A stretch of DNA of 23,876 nucleotides from a virus. Lineage: Duplodnaviria > Heunggongvirae > Uroviricota > Caudoviricetes. A program made the translations under genes and the position numbers. The notes under the pieces are model-generated. The model was not told the origin of the DNA and made no database searches. It saw only the letters and a list, made by a program, of their open reading frames with translations. The stretch is from IMG/VR virus record IMGVR_UViG_2529292889_000002; one strand, 5' to 3'. Each line of letters begins with the position of its first letter. Position 1 is the first letter of the stretch. Shown piece after piece: positions 1 through 23,876 of this stretch.

Positions 1-1
1 G

Positions 2-73
2 CGTGGTCAACAGTGGCTGACCAGAAAGCTGCTCGATAACGGAATGCTGAAAGTAACAGGGGAGGCTGCTTAA
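2..73 (+). CDS. 3' end of an upstream nin-region gene (C-terminal fragment only; identity not determinable, possibly NinG-like)
   Basis: Frame open from the window edge to TAA at 71-73; the stop overlaps the next start as TAATG, typical translational coupling in phage nin regions. Only 24 codons are visible. Confidence 0.3.
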   Translation, partial: RGQQWLTRKLLDNGMLKVTGEAA

Positions 74-1769: not shown

Positions 1770-2523
1770 TTGTAAGCCAATGTTATCATCTTGTATTGGG
1801 GTGGTTATGAAGGATGGTGCACTGCTCAGGAGTTCTTCACTTTTTATTGCCTACATGGGATGCCTTGGATGGGGGAGTGCTTATTTCTATGGATGGGGTA
1901 CTTCTTTTTACTACGGCTTCCCATGGTGGATTGTAGGTGCAGGTGTTGATGATGTTGCCAGAAGTTTATTTTTTGCAGTTATCGTCATTGCTATATTTCT
2001 TATCGGTTGGGGTATTGGTGTTGTATTCTTTTTCGCAGTGAAAAGAAAACATTCTATGCAAGAGCTAAATGTATTTCGCCTTTATTTTGCTGTGGAATTA
2101 TTGTTTGTGCCGGCAATTATTGAGTTTTCTATATTGAGACAGAAGATTCAGGTACCTCTTTTGCTACTGTCAGCAGCGATTGCGCTGGCGGTTACAATTT
2201 CGATAAGATCTTATGGGCGATTTTTATCGGTATCATGCTTCTATGATAAGCCATTTATAAAAAAACATTTTTTTGAGATTGTGATGATTGCTTTTGTGGC
2301 ATATTTCTGGCTTTTTTCATTTCTGACAGGATATTACAAACCGCAGTTTAAGAAAGAATATGAAATGATTAATTATAATGATGGTTGGTATTATGTTCTT
2401 GCTCGTTATGATAATTGTCTGGTTTTGTCTACTTCTTTCAATGCAGGTAGTAAAAGGTTTGTCATTTATCAATCAGCACAAGATAAGAATCTTCAGGTTG
2501 ATATTGTAAGGACCAGAATTTAA
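1765..2523 (+). CDS. Hypothetical polytopic integral membrane protein (cargo/moron gene; function unknown)
   Basis: Open frame of about 250 codons in a markedly AT-rich segment, where chance ORFs of this length are unlikely. Translation shows several hydrophobic helix-like stretches rich in W/F/Y/G and a C-terminal soluble tail. Start uncertain: in-frame ATGs at 1765, 1780 and 1807 (1807 has a GGGGTGG SD-like sequence 5 nt upstream). I recognise no family. Confidence 0.55.
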   Translation: MSCKPMLSSCIGVVMKDGALLRSSSLFIAYMGCLGWGSAYFYGWGTSFYYGFPWWIVGAGVDDVARSLFFAVIVIAIFLIGWGIGVVFFFAVKRKHSMQELNVFRLYFAVELLFVPAIIEFSILRQKIQVPLLLLSAAIALAVTISIRSYGRFLSVSCFYDKPFIKKHFFEIVMIAFVAYFWLFSFLTGYYKPQFKKEYEMINYNDGWYYVLARYDNCLVLSTSFNAGSKRFVIYQSAQDKNLQVDIVRTRI

Positions 2524-2656
2524 TTGGCTGCATAAATAATATTTTAAGTTGCAAGTTGGCTATTCGTAGGAATAGAACCTTAGGCATGCTGAATGCGTTT
2601 TCTGAACATTGTTTTATAAACTGTGTCTGCTTGCTGTTGTGATCCTGCTTTTAGTG

Positions 2657-2767
2657 ATGGTGATGATGGATTTCACCAGCAGGATAATGTTGGTACTGAC
2701 TGATGGCGCTCTGGTCTGCGGCATTGTGGTATTGCTGTGGCCGATGATGAAAAAACAGAATGAATAA
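2657..2767 (+). CDS. Candidate small hydrophobic peptide (36 aa; MVMMDFTSRIMLVLTDGALVCGIVVLLWPMMKKQNE)
   Basis: ATG...TAA open frame; one predicted transmembrane helix followed by a KK-containing polar tail. No clear Shine-Dalgarno; below the ORF-track length cutoff. Confidence 0.2.
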   Translation: MVMMDFTSRIMLVLTDGALVCGIVVLLWPMMKKQNE

Positions 2768-2902
2768 TCCTTGACTTTTTTGTTTACTGTTTATTAAAAA
2801 ATCAACCGCATGGTGAATCCTCCTTGGAGGGGCTAAATGATCGAGTTTTAAGGGCACGTAGCGAGTTCTGTTTGATCATTGCAGAACTTAGCGGGAGGCG
2901 CC

Positions 2903-3013
2903 ATGCGTACATCACTAATGTTATTTCCTTCTATCATTTTCCTTGTGAGTTCTGGCTGCGCATGGCGCGGCCTTTTTTTTATGACCTGCCACTGGCAGAT
3001 GGTCATCCTGTGA
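2903..3013 (+). CDS. Candidate small ORF (36 aa; MRTSLMLFPSIIFLVSSGCAWRG...) with signal-peptide/lipobox-like N-terminus
   Basis: Strong SD (GGGAGG at 2893-2898) 4 nt before ATG 2903; hydrophobic stretch ending in SSGC. The ORF spans the intrinsic terminator at 2954-2980, so it may be a gene remnant or leader rather than a functional gene. Confidence 0.2.
   Translation: MRTSLMLFPSIIFLVSSGCAWRGLFFMTCHWQMVIL
2954..2980 (+). terminator. Rho-independent terminator (+ strand)
   Basis: GGCTGCGC-ATG-GCGCGGCC: 8-bp GC-rich stem (one G-U pair), 3-nt loop, followed by T8 (2973-2980). Confidence 0.6.
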
Positions 3014-3161
3014 TTTGATTCCGGTTCCGGCTTTTTAACTCTGTTCCTGTATACGGGAGAAATTCTATGTCGATTAATCGTTATGATATTGGTTACAAGA
3101 AGTACCACGTATTGTGTTGAGATAGAAAGCCTGGTGCCAGAGGTAAATGCAGCAGCATAAT

Positions 3162-3209
3162 AAAAAAGAGCCAGCGCAGAAGAGAACGGGTAAAAGAGTC
3201 TGCGCTGGC
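3162..3209 (-). terminator. Rho-independent terminator oriented for the minus strand
   Basis: Perfect 11-bp inverted repeat GCCAGCGCAGA (3170-3180) / TCTGCGCTGGC (3199-3209) with 18-nt loop. On the minus strand the hairpin is followed by UCUUUUUU (complement of 3162-3169); on the + strand there is no T-run after it. Confidence 0.5.
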
Positions 3210-3254
3210 GTGGGGATATTCCCCGTGGAGAAATGATATGTAACACACATCGGG
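3162..3254 (-). ncRNA. Candidate small RNA of about 90 nt on the minus strand (promoter plus terminator; no protein-coding potential)
   Basis: Minus-strand promoter-like elements: -35 TTGACA (complement of 3283-3288), 16-nt spacer, -10 TATAGA (complement of 3261-3266). Predicted transcript contains a GGGGA-AUA-UCCCC hairpin and ends at the 11-bp terminator. Purely sequence-based prediction. Confidence 0.3.
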
Positions 3255-4763: not shown

Positions 4764-5288
4764 ATGAATAATCATTCAGTTATTCCAGCCTTCGACTTCC
4801 GAGAAATGGTGCAAGCCAAAAACGGAGAGGTCGTTACCACATCCAGAAAAATTGCCAAGTACTTCGGCAAGCGACACGGTGATGTTCTCAGGAAAATCGA
4901 GCAGGTTAAGGCTGATTGCTCGCGTGAGTTTAGCCAACGCAATTTTGCGTAGGCTGATTATATCGATGAGCAGGGCAAGGTTCGCCCGATGTACAGCCTG
5001 ACGAAAGATGGCTGGATCATGGTTGTGATGGGGTTCACCGGGAAAGCTGCTGCGGCAATCAAGGAGAGCTATATCGCAGCATTCAACTGGATGGCAGAGC
5101 AACTGAGCCGCCGCATGGCAATTGGCGAAGAAATGCAGCACCGCTACGCCATCAAAGAAACACGCTCAAAGCTGAAAGGTACGATCGGCAGTCGGTTAAT
5201 GAACGAACGGAAGAAAGAGAAGCGTGTCCTGGCTGTCGAGCATGAATACATTTTGCAGGTGACACAGCCTGAACTGCTGATTAATTGA
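4764..5288 (+). pseudogene. rha: Rha-family phage regulatory protein interrupted by an in-frame amber codon (TAG at 4950-4952)
   Basis: ATG 4764 with AGGT SD. N-terminal part (MNNHSVIPAFDFREMVQ...GKRHGDVLRKIEQ) and the downstream same-frame ORF (…ADYIDEQGKVRPMYSLTKDGWIMVVMGFTGKAA…) together look like a single Rha-family protein as I recall the family; they are separated only by TAG. Confidence 0.65.
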
Positions 5289-15054: not shown

Positions 15055-15392
15055 CGCGGGAAATGCAGTTTGTCATGCGGCTTGCCCGGGAGTTCCGGCG
15101 GGCAGACTGGCGGCGGATGCTGTCGGAAATGTCGGCCACTGAGCTTGGTGAGTGGGGCGATTATTTCCGGATGCAGAGCTTCAGTGATGTGTGGATGGAT
15201 GCGCAGTTTGCCTCGCTGAAGGCATTGATCGTGAGAATGGTGTCCGGCAGCAGTGATGCTGCGGTGGCTGATTTCAGCCTTTTACCGGAAGAGAACGGGA
15301 TACCGGAGCGAACGGACGAAGAACTGATGCATCTTGGGGAAGGTATTTCCGGAGGTGTGCGTTATGGACCAGATAGCCAACCTGGTCATTGA
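14668..15392 (+). CDS. Tail assembly chaperone G-T fusion produced by a programmed -1 frameshift
   Basis: Slippery heptamer G GAA AAG (15042-15048) sits two codons before the G stop, at the position of the lambda G GGA AAG site. The -1 frame is open from 15030 and continues through the T domain to 15392. Confidence 0.6.
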
Positions 15393-18369
15393 TTTGGGGA
15401 TTGATGCGGCAGAGTTTAAAAATGAAATCCCCCGTATCAAAAACCTTCTGAATGGTGCAGCCAGCGATGCAGAACGGTCTTCTGCCCGTATGCAGCGTTT
15501 TATGGAGCGTCAGACTCAGGCCGCCCGGCAGACAACGCAGGCGGCTTCTTCGGCTGCAACAGCCGCATCCGTCCATGCGCAGACGGTGGAGAAGAACGCA
15601 CAGGCTCATGAACGCATGGCCCGCGAGGTGGAGAAAACCCGCCAGCGCATGGAGGCGCTGAGCCAGAAAATGCGCGAGGAACAGGCGCAGGCCATGGCTC
15701 TGGCGGAGGCTCAGGATAAAGCGGCTGCTGCGTTTTATCGTCAGATTGACAGTGTGAAACAGGCCAGAAACAGTGGCGGGATTGGTCAGCAGGATTATCT
15801 GGCGCTGATTTCTGAGGTTACGGCGAAAACCCGTGTTCTTACACAGGCTGAGGAAGAGGCTACCCGACAGAAAGTGGCGTTTATCCGTCAGCTTAAAGAG
15901 CAGGCAACCCGCCAGAATCTTTCTTCTTCTGAGTTGCTTCGTGCTAAGGCTGCCCAACTGGGGGTAAGCAGTGCTGCAGAAGTGTATATCCGCAAAATGG
16001 AGCAGGCAGGAAAAGCCACGCATTCGCTGGGTCTGAAAAGTGCAGCGGCCCGCCAGGAGATAGGCGTTCTGATAGGTGAACTGGCCCGCGGCAATTTAGG
16101 TGCGCTGAGGGGATCCGGGATAACGCTGGCTAACCGTGCCGGGTGGATAGACACACTGATGTCACCGAAAGGCATGATGCCAGGCGGGGTTATTGGCGGT
16201 ATTGCCGCGGCTGTCTATGGTCTGGGTAAAGCCTGGTATGACGGTCAGAAGGAGGGGGAAGAATTTAACCGCCAGCTGTCGCTGACGGGGCATTATGCCG
16301 GAGTCACTGCCGGGCAGCTGTGGACGCTCAGTCGTGCTATTTCCGGGAATGGTATCACGCAACATGCTGCAGCCGGTGCGCTGGCTCAGGTGGTGGGGAG
16401 TGGTGCATTTCGTGGAAACGATATCGGTATGGTGGCGAGAGCTGCCGCACAGATGGAGCGATCTGTTGGCCAGTCGGTCAGCGATACCATAAATCAGTTT
16501 AAGCGGCTGAAGGATGATCCTGTAAATGCCGCGAAGGCTCTGGACAATGAGCTGCATTTTCTTACTGCCACTCAGCTTGAGCAGATACGTGTCCTTGGGG
16601 ATCAGGGACGGTCCAGTGATGCTGCACGGATAGCCATGTCTGCACTGGCAGAGGAAACCGGTCGGCGTACTGCGGATATTGATAATAACCTCAATGCGCT
16701 TGGTAGTACGCTGAAGTATCTGTCTGATTTGTGGAGTCGTTTCTGGGATGCGGCCATGAATATTGGTCGTGAAGACTCGCTGGATGAACAGATTGCCGCT
16801 TTACAGGAGAAAGTGTCGCGGGCGAAAAGACTCCCCTGGACGGCATCATCTTCTCAGGTTGAATACGATCAGCAGCGTCTTAACGATCTTCAGGAGAAAA
16901 AACGCCAGAAGGATTTGCAGGATGCAAAAGAGCAGGCAGAGCGGAATTATCAGGAGCAACAGAAACGCCGTAATGCTGAAAATGCTGCACTGAACCGGAT
17001 GAATGAAACGGAAGCAGCACGGCATCAGCGTGAAATTGCGCGTATTAATGCCATGCAGTACGCCGATCAGGCTGTCAGGGATGCGGCGATACAACGTGAA
17101 AATGAACGTTACGAGAAAGCCCTGGCATCCGGTAAGAAAAAAACACGCGCAACCCGTAATGATGAGGCCACCCGGTTATTGCTGCAGTACAGTCAGCAAC
17201 AGGCACAGGTGGAAGGGCAGATTGCTGCTGCAAGACAGTCAGCAGGCATTGCCACTGACAGGATGACAGAAGCGCATAAACAGCTTCTGGCTCTGCAGCA
17301 GCGCATCAGCGACCTGGACGGGAAAAAACTGACGGCAGATGAAAAGAGTGTGCTTGCCCGTAAAGATGAACTGATTCAGGCATTGACGCTGCTGGATGTA
17401 AAACAGCAGGAGCTTCAGAAACAGACGGCACTCAACGAGCTGAAGAAAAAAACAATTCAGCTGACCAGTCAACTGGCTGAAGAAGAGCGCGCTCAGCGTC
17501 AGCAACATGACCTGGATATCGCCACGGTGGGTATGGGTGATCAGCAGCGGCAGCGATATCAGGTACAACTGAGTCTTCGCCAGAAATACCAGCAACAGCT
17601 GGAGCAGTTGAGGCGGGATAGTGAGCAGAAAGGGACATATAACACGGATGACTACAGAAAGGCCGAGCAGGCGCTGACGGAGAGCCTGAACCGACAACTG
17701 AATGAGAATCGCCGTTACTGGCAACAGCTTGAAATTGCTCAGGGTGACTGGAAAAACGGAGTCCTGCGTGCACTCCAGAATGTCACTGAGAATGCGGATA
17801 ACACAGCCGGGACAGTGGAACAGTTGTTCACGTCTGCGTTCAGTAGCATGAGTGACTGGCTGGCGACATTCTGTACTACAGGCAAACTCAATTTCAAATC
17901 CTTCACCTCTTCTGTGCTGTCAGATATGTCCAGAATCATGGCTCAGATAGCTTTAATGAAAGCGGTAAAAGGCATTGCTTCCGCGCTGCCTTTTGATTTT
18001 GTAGCTAATGCTGATGGCGGTGTTTATCAGTCGGCTGATTTGAGTCGCTACAGTGGCACGGTGGTTAACCGTCCGACGTTTTTTGCTTTTGCAAAAGGCG
18101 CGGGTGTGATGGGGGAAGCTGGACCTGAAGCCATTCTGCCACTGCGTCGTGGTGCTGACGGTAAGCTGGGGGTTGTGGCGGATATTGGTGGTTCAGGTAT
18201 GGCGATGTTTGCCCCGCAGTACAACATCGAGATCAATAACGATGGCACGAACGGGCAGATAGGTCCGGCTGCCCTGAAGGTGGTTTATGACCTTGGGAAA
18301 AAAGCGGCAGCGGACTTTATGCAACAGCAGGCCCGTGATGGTGGTCGGTTAAGTGGAGCATATCGGTAA
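15364..18369 (+). CDS. H: Tail tape measure protein H
   Basis: 1001 aa, highly alpha-helical Q/A/R/E-rich coiled-coil composition; GGAGG SD 8 nt upstream; position between G-T and M. Confidence 0.9.
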   Translation: MDQIANLVIDLGIDAAEFKNEIPRIKNLLNGAASDAERSSARMQRFMERQTQAARQTTQAASSAATAASVHAQTVEKNAQAHERMAREVEKTRQRMEALSQKMREEQAQAMALAEAQDKAAAAFYRQIDSVKQARNSGGIGQQDYLALISEVTAKTRVLTQAEEEATRQKVAFIRQLKEQATRQNLSSSELLRAKAAQLGVSSAAEVYIRKMEQAGKATHSLGLKSAAARQEIGVLIGELARGNLGALRGSGITLANRAGWIDTLMSPKGMMPGGVIGGIAAAVYGLGKAWYDGQKEGEEFNRQLSLTGHYAGVTAGQLWTLSRAISGNGITQHAAAGALAQVVGSGAFRGNDIGMVARAAAQMERSVGQSVSDTINQFKRLKDDPVNAAKALDNELHFLTATQLEQIRVLGDQGRSSDAARIAMSALAEETGRRTADIDNNLNALGSTLKYLSDLWSRFWDAAMNIGREDSLDEQIAALQEKVSRAKRLPWTASSSQVEYDQQRLNDLQEKKRQKDLQDAKEQAERNYQEQQKRRNAENAALNRMNETEAARHQREIARINAMQYADQAVRDAAIQRENERYEKALASGKKKTRATRNDEATRLLLQYSQQQAQVEGQIAAARQSAGIATDRMTEAHKQLLALQQRISDLDGKKLTADEKSVLARKDELIQALTLLDVKQQELQKQTALNELKKKTIQLTSQLAEEERAQRQQHDLDIATVGMGDQQRQRYQVQLSLRQKYQQQLEQLRRDSEQKGTYNTDDYRKAEQALTESLNRQLNENRRYWQQLEIAQGDWKNGVLRALQNVTENADNTAGTVEQLFTSAFSSMSDWLATFCTTGKLNFKSFTSSVLSDMSRIMAQIALMKAVKGIASALPFDFVANADGGVYQSADLSRYSGTVVNRPTFFAFAKGAGVMGEAGPEAILPLRRGADGKLGVVADIGGSGMAMFAPQYNIEINNDGTNGQIGPAALKVVYDLGKKAAADFMQQQARDGGRLSGAYR

Positions 18370-18698
18370 TGGAGACGTTTCACTGGAAAGTGCGCCCGGA
18401 TATGAATGTGGTATCAGAGCCGAAAGTGGTGACAGTGAAGCTGGGCGATGGTTATGAACAGCGTCGTGCGGCGGGACTGAATAACCAGTTGTCGACTTAC
18501 AGCGTGACGATACGTGTTCGTAAATGTGAACACCCATCTTTAAAAGCCTTTCTGGAACGGCACGGTGGCGTCCGCGCATTTCAGTGGACGCCACCTTATG
18601 ACTGGAAGCCGATCAGGGTGGTTTGTCGTAAATGGTCGGCAAGCGTGGGGGCGCTGTGGGTAACCATAACGGCAGATTTTGAACAGGTCGTGGCATAG
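18369..18698 (+). CDS. M: Minor tail protein M (tail tip)
   Basis: 109 aa, strongly similar to lambda M as recalled (FHWKV.P.M.V.S.P.V..V.LGDGY.QR...GLN..L.TYSVT); start overlaps H stop; ends with TAG. Confidence 0.9.
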   Translation: METFHWKVRPDMNVVSEPKVVTVKLGDGYEQRRAAGLNNQLSTYSVTIRVRKCEHPSLKAFLERHGGVRAFQWTPPYDWKPIRVVCRKWSASVGALWVTITADFEQVVA

Positions 18699-18707
18699 GA
18701 GGCCCTG

Positions 18708-19406
18708 ATGCAGGATATTCCACAGGAAACACATCATGAGACGACACGCCTTACTCAGTCAGCCCAGGTGGTGCTCTGGGAAATCGATCTGACAGAGGTC
18801 GGTGGTGAACGTTATTTTTTCTGTAATGAGCAGAACGAAAAAGGTGAGCCGGTCACCTGGCAGGGGCGGCAGTATCAGGCATACCCCATTCAGGGGACGG
18901 GATTTGAACTGAACGGTAAGGGCAGTGCTGCCCGTCCGACACTGACGGTCTCTAACCTGCACGGCATGGTCACCGGGATGGTGGAAGATATGCAGAGTCT
19001 GGTCGGCGGAACGGTGGTCAGGCGTAAGGTTTACGCCCGTTTTCTGGATGCGGTGAACTTCGTCAACGGAAACAGTGACGCCGATCCGGAGCAGGAGGTG
19101 ATCAGCCGCTGGCGCATCGAGCAGTGTAGCGAACTGAGTGCGGTCAGTGCCTCCTTTGTGTTGTCCACACCGACGGAAACGGACGGCGCTGTTTTTCCGG
19201 GGCGCATCATGCTGGCCAACACCTGCACCTGGACCTATCGCGGTGATGAGTGCGGTTATAGCGGTCCGGCTGTCGCGGATGAATATGACCAGCCGACGTC
19301 CGATATCACGAAAGATAAATGCAGCAAATGCCTGAGTGGCTGTAAGTTTCGCAATAACGTCGGCAACTTTGGCGGCTTCCTTTCCATTAACAAACTTTCG
19401 CAGTAA
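18708..19406 (+). CDS. L: Minor tail protein L (tail tip, Cys cluster)
   Basis: 232 aa; C-terminal Cys cluster (DECGY...DKCSKCLSGC) as in lambda L. Confidence 0.9.
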   Translation: MQDIPQETHHETTRLTQSAQVVLWEIDLTEVGGERYFFCNEQNEKGEPVTWQGRQYQAYPIQGTGFELNGKGSAARPTLTVSNLHGMVTGMVEDMQSLVGGTVVRRKVYARFLDAVNFVNGNSDADPEQEVISRWRIEQCSELSAVSASFVLSTPTETDGAVFPGRIMLANTCTWTYRGDECGYSGPAVADEYDQPTSDITKDKCSKCLSGCKFRNNVGNFGGFLSINKLSQ

Positions 19407-19411
19407 ATCCC

Positions 19412-20155
19412 ATGACAGAGACAGAATCAGCGATTCTGGCGCACGCCCGGCGATGTGCGCCAGCGGAGTCGTGTGGCTTCGTGGTGAGAACGCCGGAAGG
19501 GGAAAGATATTTTCCCTGCGTGAATATCTCCGGTGAGCCGGAGGCGTATTTCCGGATGTCGCCGGATGACTGGCTGCAGGCAACACTGCACGGTGAGATT
19601 GTGGCGCTGGTCCACAGTCACCCCGGTGGTCTGCCCTGTCTGAGTGAAGCCGACCGGCGGCTGCAGGTGCAGAGTGATTTGCCGTGGTGGCTGGTCTGCC
19701 GGGGGGCGATTCACAAGTTCCGCTGTGTGCCGCATCTCACCGGGCGGCGCTTTGAGCACGGGGTGACGGACTGTTACACACTGTTCCGGGATGCTTACCA
19801 TCTGGCGGGAATTGAGATGCCTGATTTTCATCGTGAGGATGACTGGTGGCGTCACGGTCAGAATCTCTATCTGGATAATCTGGAGGCAACGGGGCTGTAT
19901 CAGGTTCCGTTGTCAGCGGCGCAGCCGGGCGATGTGCTGCTGTGCTGTTTTGGTTCATCGGTGCCGAATCATGCCGCCATTTACTGTGGTGACGGCGAGC
20001 TGCTGCACCATATTCCTGAACAACTGAGCAAACGAGAGAGGTATACCGACAAATGGCAGCGACGCACACACTCCCTCTGGCGTCACCGGGCATGGCACGC
20101 ATCTGCCTTTACGGGGATTTGCAACGATTTGGCCGCCGCATCGACCTTCGTGTGA
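19412..20155 (+). CDS. K: Tail tip assembly protein K (JAMM/MPN plus NlpC/P60-like domains)
   Basis: HSHPGG...SEAD metalloprotease-like motif and a downstream Cys/His region; overlaps I by about 100 nt, as I recall for lambda K/I. Confidence 0.85.
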   Translation: MTETESAILAHARRCAPAESCGFVVRTPEGERYFPCVNISGEPEAYFRMSPDDWLQATLHGEIVALVHSHPGGLPCLSEADRRLQVQSDLPWWLVCRGAIHKFRCVPHLTGRRFEHGVTDCYTLFRDAYHLAGIEMPDFHREDDWWRHGQNLYLDNLEATGLYQVPLSAAQPGDVLLCCFGSSVPNHAAIYCGDGELLHHIPEQLSKRERYTDKWQRRTHSLWRHRAWHASAFTGICNDLAAASTFV

Positions 20156-20694
20156 AAACGGGGGCTGAAGCCATCCGGGCACTGGCCACGCAGATCCCGG
20201 CGTTTCGTCAGAAACTGAGCGACGGCTGGTATCAGGTACGGATTGCCGGGCGTGATGCAGGCGAAAACGAATTATCATCCCGTCTTAATGAGCCGCTGGC
20301 AAATGGTGCAGTGATCCACATCGTACCGCGTCTGGCTGGTGCCAAAAGTAGCGGCGTGTTTCAGGCGGTGCTGGGGGCGGCGCTGATTGCTACGGCAATC
20401 TGGATGCCAGGAATCAGTATCGCTTTCAGTGACATTCTCTTTTCAATGGGCGCGGCGATGACACTTGGTGGTGTTGCACAGATGCTGGCACCGAAAGCCA
20501 GCACAGCAACAGCCAGTACCACGGATAACGGTAAGCAGAACACCTATTTCTCCTCTCTGGATAACATGGTTGCCCAGGGCAATGTTCTGCCTGTTCTGTA
20601 CGGTGAAATGCGCGTGGGGTCACGCGTGGTTTCTCAGGAGATCAGCACGGCAGACGAAGGGGATGGTGGTCAGGTTGTGGTGATTGGTCGCTGA
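20053..20694 (+). CDS. I: Tail tip assembly protein I
   Basis: 213 aa; N- and C-terminal thirds closely match lambda I as recalled (MAATHTLPLASPGMARICLYGDLQRFGRR...; ...NGKQNTYFSSLDNMVAQGNVLPVLYGEMRVGSRVVSQEIS); central segment divergent. Confidence 0.85.
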   Translation: MAATHTLPLASPGMARICLYGDLQRFGRRIDLRVKTGAEAIRALATQIPAFRQKLSDGWYQVRIAGRDAGENELSSRLNEPLANGAVIHIVPRLAGAKSSGVFQAVLGAALIATAIWMPGISIAFSDILFSMGAAMTLGGVAQMLAPKASTATASTTDNGKQNTYFSSLDNMVAQGNVLPVLYGEMRVGSRVVSQEISTADEGDGGQVVVIGR

Positions 20695-20754: not shown

Positions 20755-23700
20755 ATGGGTAAAGGCAGCAGTAAGGGGCATACCCCGCGCGAAGCGAAGG
20801 ACAACCTCAAATCCACGCAGTTGCTGAGTGTGATTGATGCCATCAGCGAAGGGCCGATTGAAGGTCCGGTGGATGGATTAAAAAGCGTGCTGCTGAACAG
20901 TACGCCGGTGCTGGACAGTGAAGGTAATACCAATATATCCGGCGTCACGGTGGTGTTCCGGGCCGGTGAGCAGGAGCAGTCACCGCCGGAGGGATTTGAA
21001 TCCTCCGGCTCTGAGACGGTGCTGGGTACGGAAGTGAAATACGACACGCCGATCACCCGGACCATCACGTCTGCAAACATCGACCGTCTGCGCTTTACCT
21101 TCGGTGTGCAGGCACTGGTGGAAACCACCTCAAAGGGGGACCGGAATCCGTCGGAAGTCCGCCTGCTGGTTTAGATACAGCGTAACGGTGGCTGGGTGAC
21201 GGAAAAAGACATCACCATTAAAGGCAAAACCACCTCACAGTATCTGGCATCGGTGGTGGTGGGTAACCTGCCGCCGCGCCCGTTCAATATCCGGATGCGC
21301 AGGATGACGCCGGACAGCACCACAGACCAGCTGCAGAACAAAACGCTCTGGTCGTCATACACCGAAATCATCGATGTGAAACAGTGCTACCCGAACACGG
21401 CACTGGTCGGCGTACAGGTGGATTCGGAGCAGTTCGGCAGCCAGCAGGTGAGCCGTAATTATCATCTGCGCGGGCGTATTCTGCAGGTGCCGTCGAACTA
21501 TAACCCGCAGACGCGGCAATACAGCGGTATCTGGGACGGAACGTTTAAGCCAGCATACAGCAATAACATGGCCTGGTGTCTGTGGGATATGCTGACCCAT
21601 CCACGCTACGGCATGGGGAAACGTCTTGGTGCGGCGGATGTGGACAAATGGGCGCTGTATGTCATCGGCCAGTACTGCGACCAGTCAGTGCCGGACGGCT
21701 TTGGCGGCACGGAGCCGCGCATCACCTGTAATGCGTACCTGACCACACAGCGCAAGGCGTGGGATGTGCTCAGTGATTTCTGCTCGGCGATGCGCTGTAT
21801 GCCGGTATGGAACGGGCAGACGCTGACGTTCGTGCAGGACCGACCGTCGGATAAGGTGTGGACCTATAACCGCAGTAATGTGGTGATGCCGGATGATGGC
21901 GCGCCGTTCCGCTACAGCTTCAGCGCCCTGAAAGACCGCCATAATGCCGTTGAGGTGAACTGGATTGACCCGAACAACGGCTGGGAGACGGCGACAGAGC
22001 TTGTGGAGGATACGCAGGCCATTGCCCGTTACGGTCGTAACGTCACGAAGATGGATGCTTTTGGCTGTACCAGCCGGGGGCAGGCACACCGCGCCGGGCT
22101 GTGGCTGATTAAAACAGAACTGCTGGAAACGCAGACCGTGGACTTCAGCGTGGGCGCAGAAGGGCTTCGCCATGTGCCGGGCGATGTCATTGAAATCTGT
22201 GATGATGACTATGCCGGTATCAGCATCGGCGGGCGCGTGCTGGCGGTAAACAGCCAGACCCGGACGCTGACGCTCGACCGTGAAATCACGCTGCCATCCT
22301 CCGGTACCACGCTGATAAGCCAGGTTGACGGAAGTGGCAATCCGGTCAGCGTGGAGGTCCAGTCCGTCACCGACGGCGTGAAGGTAAAAGTGAGCCGTGT
22401 TCCTGACGGCGTTGCCGGATACAGCGTGTGGGGGCTGAAGCTGCCGACGCTGCGCCAGCGCCTGTTCCGCTGCGTGAGTATCCGTGAGAACGACGACGGC
22501 ACGTATGCCATCACCGCCGTGCAGCATGTACCGGAAAAAGAAGCCATCGTGGATAACGGGGCGCACTTTGACGGCGACCAGAGCGGCACGGTGAATGGTG
22601 TCACGCCGCCAGCAGTGCAGCACCTGACTGCCGAAGTCACCGCAGACAGCGGGGAGTATCAGGTACTGGCCCGCTGGGATACGCCGAAGGTGGTGAAGGG
22701 CGTGAGTTTCATGCTTCGCCTGACCGTGGCAGCGGATGACGGCAGTGAGCGGCTGGTCAGCACAGCCCGGACGGCGGAAACCACATACCGCTTCACACAA
22801 CTGGCGCTGGGGAACTACAGGCTGACAGTCCGGGCAGTAAATGCGTGGGGGCAGCAGGGCGATCCGGCATCGGTATCGTTCCGGATTGCCGCACCGGCAG
22901 CGCCGTCGCAGATTGAGCTGACACCGGGGTATTTTCAGATAACCGCCACGCCGCATCTTGCGGTTTATGATCCGACGGTACAGTTTGAGTTCTGGTTCTC
23001 GGAAAAGCGGATTGCGGATATCAGGCAGGTTGAAACCAGCGCGCGCTATCTTGGCACGGGGATGTACTGGATAGCCGCCAGTATCAATATCAAACCGGGC
23101 CATGATTATTACTTTTATATCCGCAGTGTGAACACCGTTGGCAAATCGGCATTCGTGGAGGCTGTCGGTCAGGCGAGCGATGATGCGGAAGGTTACCTGG
23201 ATTTTTTCAAAGGCCAGATAACCGAATCCCATCTCGGCAAGGAGCTGCTGGAAAAAGTCGAGCTGACGGAGGATAACGCCAGCAAACTGGAGGAGTTTTC
23301 GAAAGAGTGGCAGGACGCTAACGATAAGTGGAATGCCATGTGGGGCGTCAAAATTGAGCAGACCAAAGACGGCAAACATTATGTCGCGGGTATTGGCCTC
23401 AGCATGGAGGACACGGAAGAAGGCAAGCTGAGCCAGTTTCTGGTTGCCGCTAACCGTATCGCGTTTATTGACCCGGCAAACGGGAATGAAACGCCGATGT
23501 TTGTGGCGCAGGGCAATCAGATATTTATGAACGACGTGTTCCTGAAGCGCCTGACGGCCCCGACCATTACCAGTGGTGGAAATCCACCGGCATTTTCCCT
23601 GACATCAGACGGAAAGCTGATCGCTAAAAATGCGGATATCAGTGGCAGTGTGAATGCGAACGCCGGGACGCTCAACAATGTCACGGTAAATGAAAACTGT

Positions 23701-23876
23701 ACGATTAAGGGCATGCTGGAGGCGACTCAGGTCAGAGGTGACTTCGTTAAAGCTGTATCCAAATCATTCCCGAAACAGGCTGGTACGTGGGGTAATACGG
23801 AAACACCAAACGGGACGGTTACAGTCACCATCAGCGATGATCATAACTTTGACCGTCAAATCATTATTCCGCCCAT
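20755..23876 (+). pseudogene. J: Host specificity / central tail fibre protein J, interrupted by an in-frame TAG at 21172-21174; 3' end beyond window
   Basis: N-terminal 139 codons and the following about 900 codons are in one frame and closely match lambda J as recalled; they are separated by a single TAG where I recall lambda having CAG (Gln). The frame then stays open to the last base of the window. Confidence 0.75.

Follow-up and report, generated by a model that had tools for sequence, protein, structure and literature searches.

A probable recent nonsense mutation in the tail-tip gene J of a lambdoid prophage in atypical enteropathogenic Escherichia coli 07798

Introduction

In phage lambda, a trimer of gpJ serves as the core for assembly, first of the tail tip and then of the entire tail. 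Classical lambda genetics showed that mutants defective in J form no tails, since assembly of the tail initiator begins with gpJ. The lambda Jam mutants are known as laboratory conditional-lethal ambers, which block tail formation in a non-suppressing host. The hub domains of lambda gpJ form the last tail ring together with gpL and contact gpI, gpM and gpH; the C-terminal part of the protein bears the fibre and the receptor-binding domain (PMC10721106). For resident prophages of E. coli it has been described that defective prophages of the strain Sakai are packaged and transferred through inter-prophage complementation and recombination (PMC2669165).

E. coli 07798 is an atypical enteropathogenic (EPEC) strain of serotype O157:H39, which was isolated from a patient with diarrhoea (PMC5728477). 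Here we characterize gene J of one of its prophages, which lies on a stretch of 23,876 nucleotides (the whole stretch analysed, in the following called the window). An initial annotation had noted two in-frame TAG codons in this window, one in J and one in rha, and had considered either the decay of a cryptic prophage or passage through an amber-suppressor host. Our data indicate that J was very probably inactivated by a recent spontaneous nonsense mutation and that the prophage, predicted from lambda to have lost its tails and infectivity and otherwise intact, is a case of ordinary decay.

Results

The prophage comes from a wild clinical isolate of atypical EPEC, E. coli 07798. The last 13,122 bases of scaffold JH964311.1 (assembly GCA_000303655.2) are identical to the tail of the window, and the protein EKI45173.1 is recorded as 'host specificity protein J [Escherichia coli 07798]'. 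A scaffold gap of 150 N immediately precedes the window, which ends, inside J, at the end of the scaffold. It covers the late half of a lambdoid prophage, in which Q, cargo genes, the holin, lysozyme, Rz, Rha, terminase and portal genes follow in this order, then a ClpP-protease/capsid fusion and the tail genes Z, U, V, G, T, H, M, L, K, I and J. Among complete relatives, a prophage of EPEC E2348/69 is the nearest (98.0% identity over 98% of the window), and the nearest phages are mEp460 and cdtI (96–97% identity). The prophage is a lambdoid of the mEp460/cdtI type.

As confirmed by gene calls, Pfam labels and an ORF check, J is located at the end of the tail-tip operon M-L-K-I-J, as in lambda. 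The other genes called in the window, 26 in number, each consist of one uninterrupted ORF whose length agrees with that in the relatives. The lysis and head genes had been taken to be intact in the initial annotation, which agrees with the ORF check, and the same applies to the other tail genes of the window. The genuine stop codons show a normal pattern with 12 TGA, 12 TAA and 2 TAG; the latter terminate Q (904–1527) and M (18369–18698), both of which had been named correctly as examples of TAG used as a genuine stop. The coordinates of the relevant features are compiled in Table 1.

Table 1. Features of the J locus, of the rha gene and of the cargo region in the window
Feature	Position	Strand	Remarks
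TfpB-like gene, 247 aa	1780–2523		cargo region
DUF3927 gene, 52 aa	2609–2767		cargo region
ORF, 132 aa	2848–3246	−	cargo region; hypothetical in the E2348/69 annotation
rha with second amber codon	4764–5288	+	TAG at 4950–4952, formerly TCG (Ser63), C>A at 4951; 524 of 525 nt as in E2348/69 rha
Tail-tip genes M, L, K and I, intact	18369–20694	+	uninterrupted ORFs, same lengths as in E2348/69 and mEp460
J, N-terminal fragment, codons 1–139	20755–21171	+	start of the hub region and first half of FNIII-A
In-frame amber TAG, J codon 140	21172–21174	+	formerly CAG (Gln), C>T at 21172
Rest of J, codons 141–1040, open frame	21175–23876	+	expected J stop about 290 nt beyond the scaffold end

Some further observations were made outside the J locus. 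The scaffold gap falls inside an ANT/KilAC antirepressor gene (window 1–73; 4353–5085 in L022). A 170-aa antirepressor directly upstream of the window, which was considered as a third lesion, was rejected as an artefact of this gap. The cargo region between Q and the holin gene (1780–3246) occupies the place where Stx phages carry stx. The tape-measure protein H (15364–18369) consists of 1001 aa compared with 1021 aa in mEp460 (93.7% identity), with 20 gap columns in at least two places of the alignment; a shorter H would predict a slightly shorter tail than that of mEp460.

The J ORF on the plus strand, which extends from the ATG at 20755 to 21174, codes for 139 aa. It is terminated by a TAG, codon 140 of J, in the sequence GTT TAG ATA at 21169–21177. 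One-frame translation of 20755–23875 gave 1040 codons, in which codon 140 is the sole stop: the frame remains open for 900 codons past the TAG up to the end of the window, with neither a second stop nor a frameshift, and about 97 last codons of J lie beyond the window. This open frame is not due to chance, since the J stretch is 97–98% identical to annotated, intact J genes. In the relatives, intact J has a length of 3414 nt, and across intact relatives the protein comprises 1131–1165 aa. A functional member of the family needs a single uninterrupted frame of approximately 1130–1160 codons, which is broken here at codon 140. The locus is thus to be regarded, from its reading frame, as a pseudogene and not as a functional J gene.

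For the identification of the lesion, the region around the stop was aligned over 61 nt with J of E2348/69, E2865, DCE7 and phage mEp460. All four relatives have CAG at codon 140, and compared with E2865 and DCE7 the C/T exchange at 21172 is the only difference within these 61 nt. Furthermore, a residue-by-residue alignment placed Gln at residue 140 of lambda gpJ (PDB 9e7m), which reads ...EVRLLVQIQRNGGW... around this position. Because the relatives have CAG and lambda gpJ has Gln140, the lesion is assigned to a single C>T transition at 21172, which converted the Gln140 codon CAG into TAG. The initial annotation is therefore confirmed in its description and placement of a TAG in an otherwise continuous J, in the 139-aa fragment left by the stop, in the Gln that it gave for codon 140 of lambda J and in the origin by a single C-to-T change; it had also proposed a comparison with orthologous J genes of related prophages, and CAG was present in every relative examined. 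The C>T exchange is not attributable to deamination at a Dcm hotspot (CCWGG), since the surrounding sequence GGTTCAGAT does not form such a site.

After restoration of codon 140, the J protein matched the Pfam families PF24801, PF13550, PF24421, PF24489, PF09327 and PF12421 with E-values from 1e-43 to 6e-8. The order of the domains is that of lambda (hub/FNIII-A, Phage-tail_3, two Ig_J domains and tail-tip fibre), which identifies the repaired protein as a member of the gpJ/TipJ family. It matched the PDB chains of lambda gpJ with E = 0, and its first 488 residues are almost exactly those of lambda. The stop falls within FNIII-A_GpJ (PF24801), which spans residues 86–207 of the repaired protein. 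Phage-tail_3, Ig_J, Ig_J_second, Phage_Tail_Tip and the start of Ig_GpJ_C are situated downstream of it. For the C-terminal receptor-binding domain (PF12421), 41 of the 135 profile positions are covered before the scaffold ends.

The sequence derives from a draft assembly of 2012, in which the window is immediately preceded by a gap in the scaffold and J is cut by its end, and many E. coli genomes carry J as a repeat in several copies. Thus, the TAG might be a sequencing or assembly error, for example from collapsed copies of J, and the true codon might be CAG. However, this TAG recurs in three Logan assemblies (ERR1744010, SRR6321387 and SRR18259053), whose 1.6-kb contigs are 99.9–100% identical to the window, one of them differing at 1 of 1629 bases; these three read sets were assembled independently and may represent either separate isolates or re-sequencing of one strain. 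In addition, a second NCBI accession exists for the identical 139-aa protein. The TAG is therefore not an error private to one assembly, and the lesion is reproduced in independent data, as expected of a nonsense pseudogene. Moreover, it is a substitution and not a change in homopolymer length. Altogether, an error at this position is extremely improbable.

Five further contigs retrieved for the 139-aa protein (L003 and L007–L010) were rejected as additional carriers of the TAG: they end at codon 139/140, are only 89–95% identical to the window and represent an artefact of the exact-sequence look-up. The three Logan contigs with the TAG (L004–L006) share their start at window position 19750, and their ends, at 21372–21385, lie no more than 14 nt apart. 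Such common break points hint at further copies of the flanking K/I and J sequence in other lambdoid prophages of the same genomes; if so, other lambdoid prophages might supply gpJ.

The J stop is a rare, lineage-restricted allele and is not conserved. The 61-mer carrying the TAG was present at none of 4985 J places, which belong to 3329 of the 5426 complete E. coli genomes, every best match being one mismatch off, and in none of 68 matching phage records. A 26-nt pattern with the TAG gave no match in IMG/VR, JGI metagenomes and GTDB species representatives. When the variable base was replaced by N, 120 IMG/VR stretches were fetched with this pattern, and all 120 read C. Hence, compared with intact orthologues the locus differs by a single, unconserved substitution that creates a stop, which is the signature of a nonsense pseudogene. 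These frequencies also bear on programmed recoding, i.e. a regulated readthrough yielding two J products. An in-frame stop in an otherwise open frame would fit such a mechanism, but nothing further does: the stop is conserved in no relative (0 of 4985, 0 of 120 and 0 of 68), the RNA downstream of it folds no better than shuffled sequence (z = −0.86), and Rfam gave no match at the J stop that could represent a stimulatory element. The probability of programmed recoding is therefore considered to be negligible.

The second in-frame TAG noted in the initial annotation was found in rha as described (Table 1). It is the sole difference between rha of the window and that of E2348/69. At least 25 other assemblies share this TAG allele, mostly in prophages of the P22/Sf6 type without any J gene (rha loci L014, L015, L020–L029 and L150–L153; P22/Sf6 type assigned by terminase); it was found in none of 232 places of complete E. 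coli genomes. Elsewhere, indels of 1–2 nt have caused frameshifts in copies of this rha gene. The Rha module, located between the lysis and the terminase genes, seems to undergo repeated inactivation and transfer from one phage type to another, and the loss of Rha is apparently tolerated. The lesions in J and rha arose separately, because the rha TAG is shared with prophages lacking J and the two mutations are of different types (C>A in rha, C>T in J). A 99-aa C-terminal remnant of Rha is indexed in 199 blocks of the collection.

Discussion

Taken together, the decay of the prophage, one of the two possibilities raised by the initial annotation, provides the best explanation for the J stop, which is a single base off intact orthologues, is a rare allele and has intact neighbours. 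A recent spontaneous nonsense mutation would have struck J, the gene for the tail tip and host specificity. The lesion is probably young, because no other stop is present in the 900 downstream codons and the 26 other genes are intact. Translation would end after 139 residues in the middle of FNIII-A, and the truncated protein would lack the hub domains HDIII and HDIV, FNIII-1 and FNIII-2, the central fibre and the receptor-binding domain. By analogy with lambda, induction of the prophage should result in cell lysis and DNA-filled heads, without functional tails of its own. Such a prophage, made defective by a single hit, would be inherited vertically in a small bacterial lineage.

The second possibility, passage through an amber-suppressor host, was not supported. 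It assumes a host lineage with an amber suppressor tRNA (supE/supF-like), or passage through one, in which both J and Rha stay functional. Insertion of Gln by supE would restore exactly the wild-type J, but the same suppressor would put Gln at codon 63 of rha, where the wild type has Ser. Two in-frame TAGs are found within 24 kb, both as alleles absent from the 5426 complete E. coli genomes. However, TAG accounts for 52–62% of the single-base nonsense routes in J and for 46–48% in rha (range by transition weighting), so that the chance of both lesions being TAG is approximately 0.25–0.3. Amber-suppressing coliforms were reportedly found in nature by Marshall and Levy in 1980, but 07798 is a clinical isolate, with neither a laboratory ancestry nor a joint origin of the two TAGs in one host to connect it with suppression. 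The rha TAG, being another type of mutation with a wide distribution of its own, was not created together with that of J, and the frameshifts in other rha copies are beyond rescue by a suppressor and argue for a tolerated loss. Finally, TAG remains the genuine stop of Q and M. For these reasons, we regard a suppressor host as very unlikely.

A suppressor tRNA encoded by the prophage itself was rejected, since no tRNA gene is present in the window or in 5 kb of upstream flank (approximately 29 kb of scaffold). There is likewise only a very slight chance that the O157:H39 atypical EPEC lineage possesses a natural amber suppressor tRNA or an unusually high UAG readthrough. If this were true, the ambers in J and rha would be phenotypically silent and the infectivity of the prophage would depend on the suppressor status of its host. 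The pattern of two ambers is a coincidence. Among the nonsense codons that can arise in these genes, TAG is the most frequent owing to CAG-to-TAG and similar routes, so that two in-frame TAGs in one prophage are no evidence for a suppressor host.

J might still be partly functional, either through readthrough of the UAG-A sequence by near-cognate tRNA-Gln or through gpJ supplied in trans or repair by recombination, and the prophage could then spread at reduced efficiency. A UAG followed by A is known from the classical literature as a comparatively leaky, suppressible context, and a single gpJ trimer (three copies) suffices per virion. Misreading of the J UAG by tRNA-Gln would restore the wild-type Gln140, so that some residual activity is possible. 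Natural readthrough in E. coli, however, is typically well below 1%, and neither the RNA fold nor Rfam revealed anything in the sequence that specially favours it. For a supply in trans or a repair speaks that E. coli genomes having a J-like gene contain a median of 3 and up to 14 J-like places, that everything else in the late region of the prophage is intact, and that the defective Sakai prophages are transferred by complementation and recombination (PMC2669165). On balance, we consider partial function of J unlikely. Residual function would soften the phenotype without changing what the feature is.

Disruption of J is common in resident prophages. Among 70 evaluable genes in IMG/VR contigs with this J family, 8 were truncated, mostly by frameshifts, and in the prophage of E2348/69, the closest complete relative, the annotation gives frameshifts for both H and J. 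Pseudogenization of J by a nonsense mutation is no new biological mechanism. The J lesion described here, most probably the product of recent decay, has little consequence beyond annotation, for which we recommend the label of a J pseudogene containing an internal stop. The prophage of 07798 would belong to the class of tail-defective, otherwise complete prophages, which are possibly still mobilizable via sibling prophages.

The prophage resembles lambda (gpJ structures PDB 8iyk, 8xcg and 9e7m) in the first 488 residues of J, in the order of the J domains and in the gene order M-L-K-I-J. It differs from lambda in its head genes, which are of the mEp460/cdtI type with the ClpP-protease/capsid fusion. 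With the lambda Jam mutants it shares the kind of lesion, a CAG-to-TAG amber; in contrast to these, the lesion in 07798 arose naturally, without selection in a suppressor strain, in the resident prophage of a clinical isolate. The functional relatives mEp460 and cdtI have the same gene order and 96–97% nucleotide identity from terminase to J, but carry an intact J of 1137 aa with CAG at codon 140. Compared with the disrupted J genes sampled from IMG/VR, which mostly contain frameshifts, the presumably lethal lesion is here a single nonsense substitution. The defective prophage pool of Sakai O157 and the prophage of E2348/69 are similar in having one or a few point lesions in morphogenesis genes within an otherwise complete gene set, and complementation by sibling prophages is possible in such cases (PMC2669165). 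Unlike these defective prophages, the prophage of 07798 is hit in only one essential gene within its visible 24 kb.
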